From IMG/VR virus record IMGVR_UViG_2537562019_000013: DNA of 7,417 bases, one strand, 5' to 3'. Each line of letters starts with the position of its first letter. Within the stretch, counting starts at the first letter, position 1. Under the pieces are notes generated by a model that saw only the letters and a program-made list of their open reading frames with translations, did not search any database and had not been told where the DNA came from. This document shows, piece after piece, positions 1 to 7,417 of this stretch. The stretch comes from a virus. Taxonomy: Duplodnaviria; Heunggongvirae; Uroviricota; Caudoviricetes. The translations under genes and the position numbers were made by a program.

Positions 1-76
1 TCTGGCGGATGGTGTCCTGTTGCGTCTGCAACAGTGCCCGCAGGCGGGCATTCTCATGAGCAAGTGAGGTGTCCAT
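1..76 (-). CDS. IS66-family transposase TnpC (Orf3), N-terminal 25 codons only; continues beyond window start
   Basis: Reverse complement of 1..76 opens with ATG (76..74) and translates MDTSLAHENARLRALLQTQQDTIRQ, a heptad-like leucine-rich N-terminus typical of IS66 TnpC. It starts 20 bp after the TnpB stop, the usual IS66 tnpB-tnpC spacing. Not in the ORF track because it is truncated by the window edge. Confidence 0.55.
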   Translation of the reverse strand, partial: MDTSLAHENARLRALLQTQQDTIRQ

Positions 77-95
77 ATCCTCACTTTACAACGGG

Positions 96-443
96 TTATA
101 TGCGGATTCCAGCGCGTTCCGTTCGTTTCGGGTGCTTCCAGTTGATACCTTCAAGAAGCATGGATAACTGAGCCGGAGTAAGGTGAACCTTTCCATCGCG
201 GGTGACCGGCCAGACGAAGCGGCCCCGCTCCAGGCGTTTGGTGAAGAGGCACAGTCCGTCACTGTCAGCCCACAGCACTTTTATCTGGTCACCCCGGCGT
301 CCGCGGAAGATGAACAGATGCCCGGAGAACGGGTCATCCTTCAGGACGTTCTGAACTTTTGAGGCCAGGCCGTTAAAGCCATTTCGCATATCGGTGATAC
401 CGGCAACCAGCCAGATACGCGAACCGGCAGGGAGAGATATCAT
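96..443 (-). CDS. tnpB: IS66-family Orf2 / TnpB accessory protein (115 aa)
   Basis: The 115-aa translation (MISLPAGSRIWLVAGITDMRNGFNGLASKV...LFIFRGRRGDQIKVLWADSDGLCLFTKRLERGRF) has the size and conserved motifs of IS66 Orf2. Its start overlaps the upstream ORF's stop in an ATGA arrangement at 443, suggesting translational coupling. Confidence 0.85.
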   Translation of the reverse strand: MISLPAGSRIWLVAGITDMRNGFNGLASKVQNVLKDDPFSGHLFIFRGRRGDQIKVLWADSDGLCLFTKRLERGRFVWPVTRDGKVHLTPAQLSMLLEGINWKHPKRTERAGIRI

Positions 444-1093
444 CAGTGGCTGCTCCCTTTCATTTCGCGGATAAGTGTCTGTAATAACGCCGGTGTCAGT
501 TCACCTTTCAGCCTGAGAGTTCCGGCCGGCAGAACCAGCTCACAGCACAGACTGTCGGGCGGTGTATTTATCTGTTCAGGTATCTGCACTGGTGCCGGGA
601 TTTTATTATCCGGCTCCGGAGTTAACGTCACGGGAAGTAGCGATGTTTCATGTTCGCCGGTCGGCTGCAGGCCGCCGTTACGCCAGAGATGCCGCCAGTT
701 AAAGAGCAGGTTATCGTTGATTCCGTTCTCACGAGCTATTTGTGCGACACAGGCACCGGGTAAAAGAGTTTGCTGAACAAGCCTCCATTTAAACTCCGGT
801 GAAAATCGGTTCCGGCGGATTTTCTCTGTTTTCACAGGCTGAGTCACTGTCGGGGCTGAAGGATATCGCCCAGGGAAAAGAGCCCGGGCCAGTTGCACGC
901 AGGAATATTCTCCGGAAAGAGGCCAGTCAGTGAATACCTGGTGAAATCGCCTCACCAGAGAAAAAATGGCGGTTTTGCTGATACCGGTCTGCGCAGAAAT
1001 GCGCGGGTACGACAGTGACTCGTCAAATCTCAGCTGTAGCACACGCAGGATCAATTCCGGATTGTCTGCCAGTACCGCTTTTCGTGCATTCAT
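443..1093 (-). CDS. IS66-family Orf1 / TnpA-like protein with an N-terminal HTH-like extension (216 aa as drawn; an alternative GTG start at 835 would give about 131 aa)
   Basis: The C-terminal about 130 aa (KIRRNRFSPEFKWRLVQQTLLPGACVAQIARENGINDNLLFNWRHLW...) resembles the IS66 TnpA HTH/leucine-zipper protein. The N-terminal about 86 aa (..SYPRISAQTGISKTAIFSLVRRF..) looks like a second helix-turn-helix. ATG at 1093..1091 is preceded by AAGGGA. Gene order TnpA-TnpB-TnpC on one strand is the IS66 family arrangement. Confidence 0.7.
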   Translation of the reverse strand: MNARKAVLADNPELILRVLQLRFDESLSYPRISAQTGISKTAIFSLVRRFHQVFTDWPLSGEYSCVQLARALFPGRYPSAPTVTQPVKTEKIRRNRFSPEFKWRLVQQTLLPGACVAQIARENGINDNLLFNWRHLWRNGGLQPTGEHETSLLPVTLTPEPDNKIPAPVQIPEQINTPPDSLCCELVLPAGTLRLKGELTPALLQTLIREMKGSSH

Positions 1094-1190
1094 CTTAAAT
1101 GTCCCTTTACTGCGAAAATGGACATTAGTATCGGAAACAGGAAAGGGAGGCGAAAGACGGTTTAAATGAGACGGTTACCCATAAACGATA

Positions 1191-1210
1191 AAACCGCCCG
1201 GAGGCGGTTT
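1191..1210 (-). terminator. Perfect 8-bp stem hairpin (AAACCGCC-CGGA-GGCGGTTT) immediately downstream of gene I; possible intrinsic terminator or attenuator
   Basis: Seen directly: 1191-1198 aaaccgcc, loop cgga, 1203-1210 ggcggttt. On the minus strand it is followed by TTTTATCGTTTAT, a T-rich but interrupted tract. It lies 19 bp after the I stop codon. Confidence 0.35.
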
Positions 1211-1228
1211 CACATAAAACATTTTGCA

Positions 1229-1898
1229 TCAGCGACCAATCACCACAACCTGACCACCATCCCCTTCGTCTGCCGTGCTGATCTCCTGAGAAACCACGCG
1301 TGACCCCACGCGCATTTCACCGTACAGAACCGGCAGAACATTACCCTGGGCAACCATGTTATCCAGGGAGGAGAAATAGGTGTTCTGTTTGCCGTTATCC
1401 GTTGTCTGTGTACGGGGAGTTCTGGCTTTCGGTGCCAGCATCTGCGCCACACCACCGAGCACCATACTGGCACCGAGAGAAAACAGGATGCCGGTCATAC
1501 CACCGGTCCCAATGGCTGCCCCCCATGCTGCAAGGGTGGCTCCGGCGGTAAAGAATGATCCGGCAATGGCGGCAGCCCCCAGGACAATCTGGAATACGCC
1601 ACCTGACTTGGCCCCGGCGACTCTGGGAACAATATGAATCACAGCGCCATCAGGCAGAGTCTCATGTAACTGCGCCGTTAACCCGGACGTGCTGACGTCC
1701 CGCCCGGCAATCCGTACCTGATACCAGCCGTCGCTCAGTTTCTGACGAAACGCCGGAGCTGTGTGGCCAGTGCCCGATGGCTTCAGCCCCCGTTTTCACA
1801 CGAAGGTCGATGCGGCGGCCAAATCGTTGTAAATCCCCGTAAAGGCAGATGCGCGCCATGCCCGGTGACGCCAGAGGGAGTGTGTGCGTCGCTGCCAT
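1229..1898 (-). pseudogene. I: Lambda-like tail tip assembly protein I, split into two frames (N-terminal ORF 1662..1898, C-terminal ORF 1229..1642)
   Basis: The 78-aa ORF starts MAATHTLPLASPGMARICLYGDLQRFGRRIDLRVKTGAEAI, then becomes unrelated sequence. The other frame carries the rest of the protein (..FRQKLSDGWYQVRIAGRDVSTSGLTAQLHETLPDGAVIHIVPRVAGAKSGGVF...VVVIGR). The frames cannot be joined without adding 2 nt between about 1752 and 1778. ATG at 1898 has a GAGAGG RBS and overlaps the K 3' end by about 100 bp, as in lambda. Confidence 0.65.
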
Positions 1899-2539
1899 TT
1901 GTCGGTATACCTCTCTCGTTTGCTCAGTTGTTCAGGAATATGGTGCAGCAGCTCGCCGTCACCACAGTAAATGGCGGCATGATTCGGCACCGATGAACCA
2001 AAACAGCACAGCAGCACATCGCCCGGCTGCGCCGCTGACAACGGCACCTGATACAGCCCTGTGGCCTCCAGATTATCCAGATAGAGATTCTGACCGTTAC
2101 GCCACCAGTCATCCTCGCGATGAAAATCCGGCATCTCAATCCCCGCCAGATGGTAAGCATCCCGGAACAGCGTGTAACAGTCCGTCACCCCGTGCTCAAA
2201 GCGCCGCCCGGAAAGATGTGGCACACAGCGGAACTTGTGAATCGCCCCCCGGCAAACCAGCCACCACGGCAAATCACTCTGCACCTGCAGCCGCCGGTCG
2301 GCCTCACTCAGCCAGGGCAGACCACCGGGGTGGCTGTGGACCAGCGCCACAATCTCACCCTGCATTTCTGCCTGCAGCCAGTCCTCCGGCGACATCCGGA
2401 AATACTCCTCCGGCTCACCGGAGATATTCACGCAGGGAAAATATCTTTCCCCCTCCGGCGTGCTTACCACGAAGCCGCACGACTCCGCTGGCGCACATCG
2501 CCGGGCGTGCGCCAGAATCGCTGATTCTGTCTGTGTCAT
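1796..2539 (-). CDS. K: Lambda-like tail tip assembly protein K (247 aa), MPN/JAMM plus NlpC/P60 domains
   Basis: The translation has a JAMM-type motif (VHSHPGGLPWLSEAD: H-x-H-x7-S-x2-D) and a downstream Cys/His region consistent with NlpC/P60 (..GVTDCYTLF.., ..NHAAIY..). The start ATG at 2539 lies 5 bp after the L stop. Position between L and I matches the lambdoid tail-tip order. Confidence 0.85.
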   Translation of the reverse strand: MTQTESAILAHARRCAPAESCGFVVSTPEGERYFPCVNISGEPEEYFRMSPEDWLQAEMQGEIVALVHSHPGGLPWLSEADRRLQVQSDLPWWLVCRGAIHKFRCVPHLSGRRFEHGVTDCYTLFRDAYHLAGIEMPDFHREDDWWRNGQNLYLDNLEATGLYQVPLSAAQPGDVLLCCFGSSVPNHAAIYCGDGELLHHIPEQLSKRERYTDKWQRRTHSLWRHRAWRASAFTGIYNDLAAASTFV

Positions 2540-2544
2540 GGGAT

Positions 2545-3243
2545 TTACTGCGAAAGTTTGTTAATGGAAAGGAAGCCGCCAAAGTTGCCGACGTTATTGC
2601 GGAACTTACAGCCACTCAGGCATTTGCTGCATTTATCCTTCGTGATATCGGACGTTGTCTGGTCATATTCATCCGCGACCGCCGGACCGTGATAACCGCA
2701 CTCATCGCCGCGATAGGTCCAGGTGCAGGTGTTGGCCAGCATGATACGTCCCGGAAAAACAGCGCCATCTGTTTCCGTCGGCGTGGACAGTACAAAGGAG
2801 GCACTCACCGCGCTCAGTTCGCTGCACTGCTCGATGCGCCAGCGGCTGATCACCTCCTGCTCCGGATCGGCGTCACTGTTTCCGTTAACGAAGTTCACCG
2901 CATCCAGAAAACGGGCGTAAACCTTACGCCGGACCACCGTTCCGCCGACCAGACTCTGCAGATCTTCCGCCATCCCGGTGACCATACCGTACAGGTTAGA
3001 AACCGTCAGCGTGGGGCGCGTACTGGTGCCTTTGCCATTCAGTTCAAAACCACTCCCCTGAATGGGATACGGCTGATACTGTCGCCCCTGCCAGGTGACC
3101 GGCTCACCTTTTTCGTTCTGCTCATTACAGAAAAAATAACGTTCTCCACCGACCTCTGTCAGGTCGATTTCCCAGAGCACCACGCTGGCCGACTGCTCCG
3201 CACGGGTGCATTCATTCAGTGTTTCCTGCCGGATATCCTGCAT
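2545..3243 (-). CDS. L: Lambda-like tail tip assembly protein L (232 aa)
   Basis: 232 aa, the same length as lambda gpL, with a C-terminal cysteine cluster (C-x8-C ... C-x2-C-x3-C) consistent with the Fe-S site reported for gpL. Its ATG overlaps the M stop in an ATGA arrangement at 3243. Confidence 0.85.
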   Translation of the reverse strand: MQDIRQETLNECTRAEQSASVVLWEIDLTEVGGERYFFCNEQNEKGEPVTWQGRQYQPYPIQGSGFELNGKGTSTRPTLTVSNLYGMVTGMAEDLQSLVGGTVVRRKVYARFLDAVNFVNGNSDADPEQEVISRWRIEQCSELSAVSASFVLSTPTETDGAVFPGRIMLANTCTWTYRGDECGYHGPAVADEYDQTTSDITKDKCSKCLSGCKFRNNVGNFGGFLSINKLSQ

Positions 3244-3572
3244 CAGTTCACCACCTGTTCAAACTCTGCGCTGAACTCAACACGCAACATACTGACCCGC
3301 GACGACCATTTTGCGCAGGTCACCTTTATCTGCCGCCACTCATAAGGCGGCGTCCACAGAAAGGCTTTCCAGCCCCCGTGCTCTTCCAGAAACGACTCCA
3401 GTACCGTGGCCTCCTCACGGGGGACAGAAAGCGTCACGCTGTACGTTTTCAGGTTGGCATTCAGCCCGGCAGGCGCTCGCTGAGAATAGCCATCACCAAA
3501 GCGCACCTTTCTTACAGAAGGGACCGAAGCCACATCCATACCGGGTTTCACTTTCCAGCGGAAGGTCTTCAT
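3243..3572 (-). CDS. M: Lambda-like tail tip assembly protein M (109 aa)
   Basis: 109 aa, the same length as lambda gpM, in the conserved H-M-L position. Its start overlaps the stop of the H C-terminal frame in an ATGA arrangement at 3572..3569. Confidence 0.85.
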   Translation of the reverse strand: MKTFRWKVKPGMDVASVPSVRKVRFGDGYSQRAPAGLNANLKTYSVTLSVPREEATVLESFLEEHGGWKAFLWTPPYEWRQIKVTCAKWSSRVSMLRVEFSAEFEQVVN

Positions 3573-6147
3573 CGTCCACCTCCGGAGAACAGGCCACCAT
3601 CACGCATCTGTGTCTGAATTTCATCACGGGCACCCTTGCGGGCCATGTCATACACCGCCTTCAGAGCAGCCGGACCTGGCAGACCATTCGTACCGTCGTT
3701 CTGAATCACCACGTGATTGTTCTGATTAAAATTAATGCCTTCAGCCCGCCGCATCTGCGCCGGACTTCCCGGCACCGCACATAACCACCTTCCGCATAGC
3801 CCCGCATCAGGCGGTACAGGTTGCCGACACCAATCCGGCTGGTTGCCTCCTTCGTGAAGACAAACTCACCACGGTGAACAATCCCCGCTGGCTCATATTT
3901 GCCGCCGGTTCCCGTAAATCCTCCGGTTGCAAAATGGAATTTCGCCGCAGCGGCCTGAATGGCTGTACCGCCTGACGCGGATGCTCCACCACTGGCAGCA
4001 CCGCCAATGGCGCTGCCGATACTCCCGACAATCCCCACCATTGCCTGCTTAAGCAGAATTTCTGTCATCATGGACAGCACGGAACGGGTGAAGCTGCGCC
4101 AGTTCTGCTCACTGCCGATCAGCATCGCCGCCATATTCTGTGCAATACCATCAAAGGTCTGCGTGGCTGCACTTTTTACCTGCGACATACTGTCCGTGGC
4201 GCTCTCTTCCCACTCACTCCAGCCGGACTTCAGGCCTGCCATCCAGCTCCCGCGAAGCTGGTCTTCAGCCGCCCAGGTCTTTTTCTGCTCTGACATGACG
4301 TTATTCAGCGCCAGCGGATTATCGCCATACTGTTCCTTCAGGCGCTGTTCCGTGGCTTCCCGTTCTGCCTGCCGGTCAGTCAGCCCCCGGCTTTTCGCAT
4401 CAATGGCGGCCCGTTTTGCCCGTTGCTGCTGTGCGAATTTATCCGCCTGCTGCGCCAGCGCGTTCAGGCGCTCCTGATACGTAACCTTGTCGCCAAGTGC
4501 AGCCAGCTGGCGTTTGTACTCCAGCGTCTCATCTTTATGCGCCAGCAGGGATTTCTCCTGTGCAGACAGCTGGCGACGTTGCGCCGCCTCCTCCAGTACC
4601 GCGAACTGACTCTCCGCCTTCCACAAATCCCGGCGCTGCTGGCTGATTTTCTCATTCGCTCCGGCATGCTTCTCCAGCGTCCGGAGTTCTGCCTGAAGCG
4701 TCAGCAGGGCAGCATGAGCACTGTCTTCCTGACGATCGCCCGCAGACACCTTCACGCCGGACTGTTTCGGCTTTTTCAGCGTCGCTTCATAATCCTTTTT
4801 CGCCGCCGCCATCAGCGTGTTGTAATCCGCCTGCAGGATTTTCCCGTCTTTCAGTGCCTTGTTCAGTTCTTCCTGACGGGCGGTATATTTCTCCAGCGGC
4901 GTCTGCAGCCGTTCGTAAGCCTTCTGCGCCTCTTCGGTATATTTCAGCCGTGATGCCTCAGACTCGGCCCAGTCCTTTGCTGCCATCTCTCTGGCCTTTT
5001 CAAGATCGGCCTGCAACGTGGCGGCTGAAAGCCCAAGTTGCGCATTCGCTCTGTCCTCCCATGCTCCCCGGAGATTGGCAAGAAATGCTGAGGTTTTACC
5101 GCGCCGGTGGCTCCGGCTCTGATACCACTGCCATTTTTTGTCCGCCTCATCAAAAGCCTTTTCTGCTTTCTCCAGCATTCCCTGGGCAGTGTCCGGGCGA
5201 CCAATATCCAGCACCGAATCCCACATGGATTTGAATGCCCGTGCTGTCCTGTCTGCCCAGGTCTCCAGCGTGCCCATGTTCTCTTTCAGGCGGCGGGTCT
5301 GGTCATCAAACCCTTTCGTTGCGGCTTCGTTCGCCGCCTGCAATGCCCCGGCTTCATCGCCGGAACGCTGCAACTGAGCAACATACGCAATCTGCTCCGC
5401 CGTCACGTTATGGAACTGACGCGCCATCGCCGTCAGCCCCGACGTCGGGTCTGTGGTCAGCTTCCCGAAGGCTTCAGCGACCTTGTCCACCTCCACGCCG
5501 GATGCAGAGGAGAAACGCGCCACACTCTGGCTGATCGCCTCAAACTGCTCACCACCACGCACACCGGCATTCACCAGCGCCGTCAGTGACTCGCTGGTCT
5601 GGTTAAACGTCAGCCCTGCCGCCTGCCCGGCTCTGGACAGGACCAGCATACGATCTGCCGTCAGACCCGACTGATGACCGGAAAGGACCAGCGTTTTGTT
5701 GAAATCGGACAGGGTTGAGTTGCCCTGATACCAGGCATACGCCAGCGCACCGGTCGCCACCGCCAGCGAGGTGGCCCCCACCATCGGCAGGGTGATCGCA
5801 CCGGCAAGCCCCCTGAACATGGGGATCATCCCGCCGAAGGAGTCCTTAACCTGACCCCCCTGTTGCAGCAGGATCAGCCACGGACTTTGCCCGCCTGCAA
5901 GCTGCGTGGCCACGTCGGTGAACTGTGCAGGCAGCATACGCATGGCGGCTTTATACTGCCCGACGGAAATCCCCGCTTTCTGTGCAGCCAGCGCCTGTCG
6001 GCTCAGCGACTGTTCAACGACTGCCGCTGTTTTTTTCGCATCACTTTCCGTACCGGAAAAATGACGCCTGACTCTGGCCATCTGCTCGTCAAATCTGGCC
6101 GCATCCAGACTCAAATCAACGACCAGATCGCCTACCGGTTCAGCCAT
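3569..6147 (-). CDS. H: Lambda-like tail tape measure protein H, frame-disrupted near the 3' end (main ORF 3706..6147, 813 aa; C-terminal 67 codons in another frame at 3569..3775)
   Basis: The N-terminus (MAEPVGDLVVDLSLDAARFDEQMARVRRHF..), long coiled-coil middle and glycine-rich segment are typical of a tape measure protein. After ..LMRGYAEGGYV the main frame becomes an aberrant 30-aa tail (RCREVRRRCGGLKALILIRTITW*). The true C-terminus (..NFNQNNHVVIQNDGTNGLPGPAALKAVYDMARKGARDEIQTQMRDGGLFSGGGR) is in a frame offset by 1 nt and ends exactly at the M start. Confidence 0.8.
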
Positions 6148-6978
6148 ACCGGACTCCTCCTGCGATCCCTTCTGATACTGTCATCAGCATTACGTCATCC
6201 TCCGTCATGTCCGCCACATCCGGGGAAGCGGGGATAACTTCATTCCCGTCCGGGCCAAAGCGGACGCCTCCGGCAAGCCCTGCCGCTTTCTGCATCAGCA
6301 CATCATCTTCAGGCTCTTCGTCAGCCTCACGCCGGTTCAGCAGACTGAAATCCAGCGGATGCATATCCGGATCGCTGAAAAACAGGCTGAGTACGGTGTA
6401 CGTCAGCCCGGAAAAGTGCATATCCAGCAGAACATCATGAAAATAATGGGTACTGTAAAAGCGGTGCCAGTCGGCATACTCCGTGGATGACATCCCGGCA
6501 AGCATGGCACGCCAGTCGGGTCGCCCCATCTCTCGCGCCAGTTTCAGGGCAAAACTCAGCTCACCATCGAACACTTTCCCGCAGAAACAGGCTCTGCAGG
6601 CCCGGCGTCCTCTGTCTGTTCAGGAGCATCATTCACCACAAACTCATACATACCGGACAGCCGGTACACCACGTTTTCAGCATGAGAAATTGCCTCCGTG
6701 GGCCAGGTGGTAAGCACTTCCTGCTCAATCTGTTTAACGGCTTCATTCATGGAAGGCAGCTTTGTCTTCTTCGGATGGTTATGCCACAGGGACATCGCCA
6801 CCAGAAACGCGCCGGTTCTGATGGCGTCTTCCACAGTAAACTTCCGGTTGCTGTCTGACTCCGCCTGTTCTGCCTGCCGTTTCATCAGGGCGAGATGCTC
6901 AATACGCTGCAGGGCTGACAGTTCAGAAAGCGTGACGGTCACACCGTTATGTTCAAATGATTCGGTTTTCAGGAACAT
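6140..6978 (-). CDS. T: Tail assembly chaperone G-T fusion made by programmed -1 ribosomal frameshift (T portion at 6140..6574)
   Basis: The -1 frame after the slippery site reads K-VFDGELSFALKLAREMGRPDWRAMLAGMSS.., which is the T ORF in the track. That ORF has no proper start of its own; its leading M is a GTG inside G. It overlaps the H start by 8 nt. This is the conserved G/GT arrangement of lambdoid and many other tailed phages. Confidence 0.8.
6556..6978 (-). CDS. G: Lambda-like tail assembly chaperone G (140 aa)
   Basis: 140 aa, ending ..PVSAGKCSMVS, with the slippery heptamer G GGA AAG in frame near its 3' end. ATG at 6978 is preceded by a GGAGA RBS, 15 bp after the V stop. Confidence 0.85.
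   Translation of the reverse strand: MFLKTESFEHNGVTVTLSELSALQRIEHLALMKRQAEQAESDSNRKFTVEDAIRTGAFLVAMSLWHNHPKKTKLPSMNEAVKQIEQEVLTTWPTEAISHAENVVYRLSGMYEFVVNDAPEQTEDAGPAEPVSAGKCSMVS
6574..6580 (-). promoter_or_regulatory. Programmed -1 frameshift slippery heptamer G GGA AAG (G-T recoding site)
   Basis: Plus-strand ctttccc at 6574-6580 is GGGAAAG on the minus strand, with GGA and AAG as in-frame codons of G (..A-G-K-C..). A -1 slip enters the T frame. Confidence 0.8.
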
Positions 6979-6993
6979 CGCTGACTCTCCGGA

Positions 6994-7417
6994 TTAACTG
7001 GCGGTGACGTTGATTTCTGCAACCGCAGCAAGTTCACCATTACCGGATACGACCGGAATGTTGACCTTGCCTGCAGCAACACCTTTCACGGTGATGGTCA
7101 TACCACTGACCGACACGGTGGCTTTTGTTTTATCCGCTGACACCGCACGGAAGCTCTTGTCGGTTGCGCCTTCCGGCTGGAATGCCACGGTCAGCGTGGT
7201 GCTCTTCCCTTTCACTACGGAAGCGCTGGCTGGCGTCACGGTCATACCGGTTGCCGCTGTTACCGTGCTGCGATCTTCTGCCATCGACGGACGTCCCACG
7301 TTGGTGACTTTCACCGTGCGGGTGATCACTTCCTTCGCCGTCACCGCCTTACCGATACTGCTGACCCAGCCGCGGAACACATCGACCGTGCCGTTCGGGA
7401 AGCGGATTTTATAGGCA
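6994..7417 (-). CDS. V: Lambda-like major tail protein V, C-terminal part including the Ig-like domain; 5' end lies beyond the window
   Basis: The frame is open from the window edge (..[83 protein letters not shown]...NVTAS*). The T/V/S-rich C-terminus looks like the Big_2-type Ig-like domain of gpV. The M at 7380 in the track is an internal GTG. Stop TAA at 6996..6994. Confidence 0.8.

Follow-up and report, generated by a model that had tools for sequence, protein, structure and literature searches.

Two single-base losses in tail gene I of a prophage contig from Escherichia coli 179550 are probably artefacts of collapsed-repeat assembly

Tail gene I of the lambda-type prophage analysed here is interrupted by two separate single-nucleotide deletions, and the tape measure gene H of the same contig is broken by a +1/−2 cluster. 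We consider it probable, at odds of about three in four, that the gene I deletions and the H cluster are consensus artefacts of a collapsed repeat and not mutations of the bacterium. The contig is a mosaic, its private differences are nearly all indels, and I and H are intact in long-read genomes of the same lineage. We attribute the mosaic to the assembler rather than to events in the bacterium, an inference from this pattern combined with general knowledge of overlap-consensus assemblers.

The whole 7,417-bp window corresponds to contig APXB01000377.1 of assembly GCA_000356365.2, a draft assembly of E. coli 179550 from 2013. The contig is bounded by repeats, with one end inside a multicopy IS66 element and the other in gene V. 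Strain 179550 is a CS7-expressing ETEC originating from Bangladesh (reads SRR446711), whose draft was built by Celera Assembler from 100-bp Illumina HiSeq 2000 reads (PMC5469772); it is also included in the strain listing of PMC6301781. Given that the published platform is Illumina, flowgram homopolymer errors of the 454/Ion Torrent type could be ruled out as a source of the deletions.

The lambda-type tail module occupies positions 1179–7417 on the minus strand and reads V (partial), G, T, H, M, L, K, I, with only the 3′ part of V present at the contig end; it is a mosaic of three resident prophage copies. Between G and T, the slippery heptamer GGGAAAG is present at 6580–6574 on the minus strand, as in the programmed −1 frameshift of lambda. 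It lies 19–25 nt upstream of the G stop codon (6556–6558), and the T ORF (6140–6574) starts directly after it.

Positions 1–1178 (minus strand) hold the end of an IS66-family element, comprising tnpA (443–1093), tnpB (96–443) and the first 76 nt of tnpC. As judged from uninterrupted relatives, the insertion separates I from J, at a point ~10 bp before the J ATG, and its effect on J-lom-stf is probably polar. The IS portion of the contig is itself a blend: the segment 108–363 carries alleles of the plasmid IS66 copy of the lineage, and seven positions within 378–1034 match neither this plasmid copy nor the copy at the chromosomal junction. These seven positions presumably come from further IS copies.

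For comparison we used the complete long-read genomes of three strains from the CS7 lineage, of which 179550 is a member: 90-9280 (O114:H49), ETEC-2264 and E2980 (L3_CS7; NZ_LR882978.1). All three carry the identical IS66 insertion after I, and in all three both I (573 bp as annotated) and H are intact. Each genome contains three lambda-like tail modules, 95–99% identical to one another, designated copies A, B and C; copy A is the module with IS66, copy B adjoins ynfA-ynfB, and copy C is located at 0.16 Mb in 90-9280. The multicopy state that a collapsed repeat presupposes is thus known from relatives of 179550, such as 90-9280, and it is from these related strains that copies A, B and C were taken. 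Over 7,402 bp, the IS66-bearing copies of the three genomes are 3–15 substitutions and no indels apart.

Small differences among these long-read genomes deserve mention in their own right. In gene V (7123–7285 of the 7,402-bp region), copy A of 90-9280 is unlike copy A of ETEC-2264 and E2980, and copy C of 90-9280 carries an A-type V, a pattern that suggests real exchange or inversion between the prophages of that long-read genome. In ETEC-2264, three SNPs at 4612–4693 represent a small exchange between copies.

Gene I, which encodes a homologue of the lambda tail tip assembly protein I, extends over 1229–1898 on the minus strand and requires three reading frames as written. Frame 1 encodes MAATH…RVKTGAEAI (full string MAATHTLPLASPGMARICLYGDLQRFGRRIDLRVKTGAEAI) and then junk up to a stop at 1662, frame 3 contributes the seven codons RALATQL between the two main parts of the gene, and frame 2 encodes the rest of gpI, starting with AFRQKLSDGWYQ and running as APAFRQKLSDGWYQVRIAGRDV...VVVIGR to the stop codon. 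Such a three-frame layout implies two separate 1-nt losses and not a single loss of 2 nt.

Alignment with intact relatives (phage 21, lambda and several E. coli prophages) located both losses. At the first site (1755–1756, plus strand) the contig reads GCCGGAG where every relative has GCCGGGAG, which on the gene strand changes CTCCCGG to CTCCGG; copies A, B and C are identical here. At the second site (1773–1776, plus strand) the contig has GCCCGATG, copy B GCCCGGATG and copy A GCGCGGATG. The G concerned is at 1776, where CCCGATG in the contig stands against CCCGGATG or GCGGATG in relatives, and it was lost two bases from an A/B SNP at 1774. The deleted forms AACGCCGGAGCTGTG and GTGCCCGATGGC therefore have as undeleted counterparts AACGCCGGGAGCTGTG and GTGCCCGGATGGC or GTGCGCGGATGGC, respectively, and the interval from AEAI to FRQK measures 25 nt in the contig vs 27 nt in intact genes. 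The original prediction, made from the letters of the window, had proposed two separate 1-bp losses and the same 25-for-27-nt shortfall; three-frame translation and alignments bear out both, and its coordinates and base calls proved exact. The comparison it had suggested, with intact gpI of lambda and other prophages, reveals each of the single-base losses.

Restoring the two Gs (1755–1756 and 1776) yields a protein of 223 aa, 221 of which are identical to lambda gpI (NP_040599). The repaired product matches Pfam PF06805 (Lambda_tail_I) over residues 14–97 with 99.9 bits against a cut-off of 23.8 (1.1e-28), and chain I of PDB entry 8iyk over residues 1–223 (E = 8.6e-141). As written, the N-terminal ORF of 78 aa (1662–1898, minus strand) consists of the first 41 residues of gpI followed by an out-of-frame remainder, and scores 30 bits to PF06805 over profile positions 2–42 only. 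The 137-aa ORF (1229–1642, minus strand), which a gene caller predicts for the C-terminal part of gpI from a GTG start and which equals the C-terminus of the copy-B type I, has no PF06805 match, because the model covers the N-terminal domain only.

The position of the gene is likewise the expected one, between K, whose 3′ end it overlaps, and J, which is displaced here by IS66. By sequence and position, gene I is a typical lambda gpI homologue that lacks only an uninterrupted frame, three frames being needed to read it; as written, it is either a pseudogene or a mis-assembled gene. Its start is annotated in two ways. RefSeq (PGAP) gives 190 aa in relatives, from a GTG that overlaps the TGA of K (GTGA at 1796–1799), and the lambda and phage 21 records use an ATG 99 nt upstream, at 1898, for 223 aa. 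Both frameshift sites are downstream of the GTG (1799) and the ATG (1898) alike.

We searched for the gene I allele elsewhere. A 161-nt query across the sites matched 11,699 places in 4,289 complete E. coli genomes, with a median of 2–3 homologous places per genome; the best matches listed are all 163 nt long, with neither deletion among them. An exact search with a 38-mer spanning both deletions gave no occurrence in either GTDB representative genomes or IMG/VR, and no gene on record encodes exactly the 78-aa N-terminal product. The 137-aa C-terminal ORF is present on about 20 contigs, ten of which were readable. In the nine that do not belong to 179550, the ORF has other causes: some run up against a contig end, one adjoins an N gap and one a deletion junction, two carry different TAG nonsense codons, and one has lost a single nucleotide at another site. 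Gene I is therefore knocked out in other assemblies too, never with the lesion of this contig, and none of the independent assemblies or related isolates among the records searched has it.

Three of these other assemblies carry real-looking point lesions of their own. In L011, a CAG codon of gene I is changed to TAG at the Q of ALATQL; in L012, the same change is found further along; and in L015, 1 nt is lost from the G5 run of AAAACGGGGGCT.

The existence of two ORFs, with the C-terminal one of 137 aa opening on GTG, might point to a gene that functions in split or recoded form, through programmed frameshifting or as two separately translated polypeptides. This seems to us extremely improbable. 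Two shifts in the same direction would be needed only 20 nt apart, neither site has a slippery heptamer, the break at residue 42 falls inside the Lambda_tail_I span (14–97), and the layout is conserved nowhere in the databases searched. Programmed frameshifting in particular is effectively refuted by the combination of non-conservation and missing slippery sites. A natural two-ORF form of I, which the original prediction had raised as the counter-case, is shared by no other sequence searched.

Evidence for the collapsed-repeat reading comes from the tail module as a whole. We aligned positions 1179–7417 of the contig with copies A, B and C, which gave 429 variable columns, and at 421 of them the contig matches at least one copy. 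The matching parent changes at least 29 times in 6.2 kb, and nine of the segments must be shorter than 100 nt, so that the alternation falls below the read length, as anticipated for a collapsed repeat. Parent switches can be as close as 3 bp: a B allele at 1958 is followed by A-lineage-specific alleles at 1961 and 1964. The best single natural match to this region, at 98.2%, is E. coli LR-71-1 (L020). In that strain, H carries an internal stop and has been annotated as a pseudogene.

In a three-taxon comparison, each variable site is private to one sequence. Alternation between A and B in a comparison of three sequences is for this reason insufficient as proof of chimerism, and we extended the panel to TW10828, S30, LR-71-1 and 13E0767. 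With this wider panel, some "B" alleles turn out to be merely the common allele. Alleles specific to the A/TW10828 lineage are present in the contig at 1189, 1331–1367, 1961, 1964, 2030, 2093 and 2153–2255, and those at 1774, 1830, 1958 and 2302–2373 are absent; alleles found in copy B only are present at 1507, 3287–3671 and 4118. This interleaving of A-lineage-specific and B-only alleles rules out that the contig is a mere "central" haplotype, and puts the mosaic conclusion on firmer ground.

The mosaic extends to the protein level. Gene K (1796–2539, minus strand), which overlaps the start of I and encodes a JAB/NlpC-P60 tail protein, is an A/B chimera whose product mixes A- and B-type residues (E45, Q56, A80, A99, S110, H140, Y237 and A241). 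Among about 15 billion proteins, this chimeric K (ENA58049.1 / WP_001388824.1) is a singleton found on one contig, against 22 contigs for the K form of copy A and at least 1,000 for that of copy B. No other assembly contains the chimeric form, including those of other isolates from the sequencing project of 179550.

Gene H (3569–6147, minus strand) is split into an 813-aa ORF (3706–6147) and a C-terminal ORF (3569–3775). In its middle part (4954–5272), a strongly divergent block, the contig goes with copy B, whose block exceeds those of A and C by 18 nt, and the intact product would therefore have 859 aa vs 853 aa in copy A. The second frameshift cluster lies in the 3′ part of the gene (3768–3778, plus strand; alternative strings CTTCCCGGCACCGCACAT vs CTTCCGGCACCGCCCACAT), where one C is gained and CC is then lost relative to copies A and C. 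The net change of −1 removes the last ~60 residues. Here the contig makes an A-to-B-to-A micro-switch within a strongly divergent stretch, taking the extra C of copy B at 3768 and the bases of copy A at 3767 and 3773–3777. The cluster is the gap pattern of B without the substitutions of B, which is what a pile-up of mixed reads aligned with gaps would produce. At this site, the best matches listed in complete genomes are all one base longer than the contig, and both frameshifted H products have APXB01000377.1 as their sole contig among about 15 billion proteins.

At eight of the 429 variable columns the contig has a state of its own, and six of these eight belong to the gene I deletions and the H cluster. 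The private columns are 1754 and 1775 in gene I, 3773–3777 in H, and the substitutions at 3865 and 6392. Counted as events, there are 4–5 indels vs two substitutions, with all of the indels confined to two clusters of 10–21 bp.

The simplest explanation of these data is as follows. The chromosome of the lineage of 179550 carries three lambda-like prophages whose tail modules are 95–99% identical, and 100-bp reads from the three copies, together with reads from several IS66 copies, were probably merged by Celera Assembler in one contig. Consensus calling column by column would then produce a sequence that alternates between the copies, and gapped alignment of the mixed reads could drop or add bases in short C/G runs. 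In favor of this mechanism, the second gene I deletion is two bases from an A/B SNP, and the H cluster coincides with a difference between copies. Against it, the first deletion (1755–1756) is not at a site that varies among A, B and C, and read mixing offers no obvious explanation for it. Indel errors are also rare in Illumina data, and co-resident lambdoid prophages recombine in nature.

The last point raises the possibility of real, patchy gene conversion among the three prophages of 179550, with the indels as scars of heteroduplex repair at the junctions. Nearly every difference from copy A is indeed an allele of copy B or C, and small exchanges such as those in ETEC-2264 (4612–4693) and in the V region of 90-9280 occur among the long-read genomes. 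If true, dozens of very short patches would have been exchanged in one isolate, and I and H inactivated almost at once. We find such a history hard to credit: at least 29 switches and nine tracts under 100 nt would have arisen while only two substitutions accumulated, and at the H cluster the indel state of B alone would have been transferred, with none of its neighboring substitutions. Nor is the chimeric K found in any other assembly, those of the same project included.

Genuine pseudogenization is a better candidate than such conversion, and we still regard it as unlikely. It would hold that IS66 crippled the prophage, that selection on the tail genes was relaxed, and that the I and H frameshifts are real in 179550. 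By separating J from its upstream region, ~10 bp before its start in the contig and in the three long-read lineage genomes, the element plausibly makes the prophage defective and relaxes selection on I and H; the independent gene I lesions of L011, L012 and L015 and the H pseudogene of LR-71-1 agree with decay of this kind. However, the long-read genomes with the same IS66 keep I and H intact, at 3–15 substitutions and no indels from one another. In the contig, 4–5 private indels lie within stretches of 21 bp and 10 bp and exceed the two private substitutions; independent neutral mutation would give neither such clustering nor such an excess. In addition, the allele is in none of the best complete-genome matches listed, the frameshifted products are confined to one contig, and the fine mosaic around the lesions is shown by no long-read genome. 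The original prediction had offered sequencing error in homopolymers and relaxed selection on a cryptic prophage as its two explanations. Our results favor the error branch, in the form of a collapsed-copy consensus; its homopolymer-miscall version did not hold up, and relaxed selection fits poorly.

The gene I frameshifts themselves have little biological importance. Gene I offers nothing new, whether as a mis-assembled gene or, should the lesions be real, as an unremarkable pseudogene of a prophage already broken by an IS. If they are artefacts, they are a caution: collapsed repeats in short-read draft assemblies can give rise to frameshifted prophage genes, which should then be taken neither for pseudogenes nor for signs of prophage decay. 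As singletons, the chimeric K and truncated H products of this contig have entered protein databases.

Comparison with known systems places these features in context. The repaired product resembles lambda gpI closely in length (223 aa), identity (221/223), PF06805 domain and match to chain I of 8iyk, and the gene order V-G-T-H-M-L-K-I, with I overlapping the end of K and J downstream in relatives, is that of lambda. In contrast to lambda, the contig gene is broken at codons 42 and 49, which makes a full-length gpI impossible as written, and an IS66 element separates I from J. With decaying lambdoid prophages, the contig has in common an IS in the late operon, and I and H lesions are known from other assemblies, but its own lesions are clustered and more numerous than the private substitutions, and no long-read genome of the lineage examined here has them. 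With collapsed-repeat contigs, it shares its short length, its boundaries in repeats (IS and prophage tail genes), the alternation of copies below the read length, and private differences dominated by small indels in C/G runs, located at or close to differences between copies. It departs from them in that the first gene I deletion falls where no difference between the copies is known, and its probable assignment to this class is drawn from the contig and its relatives.
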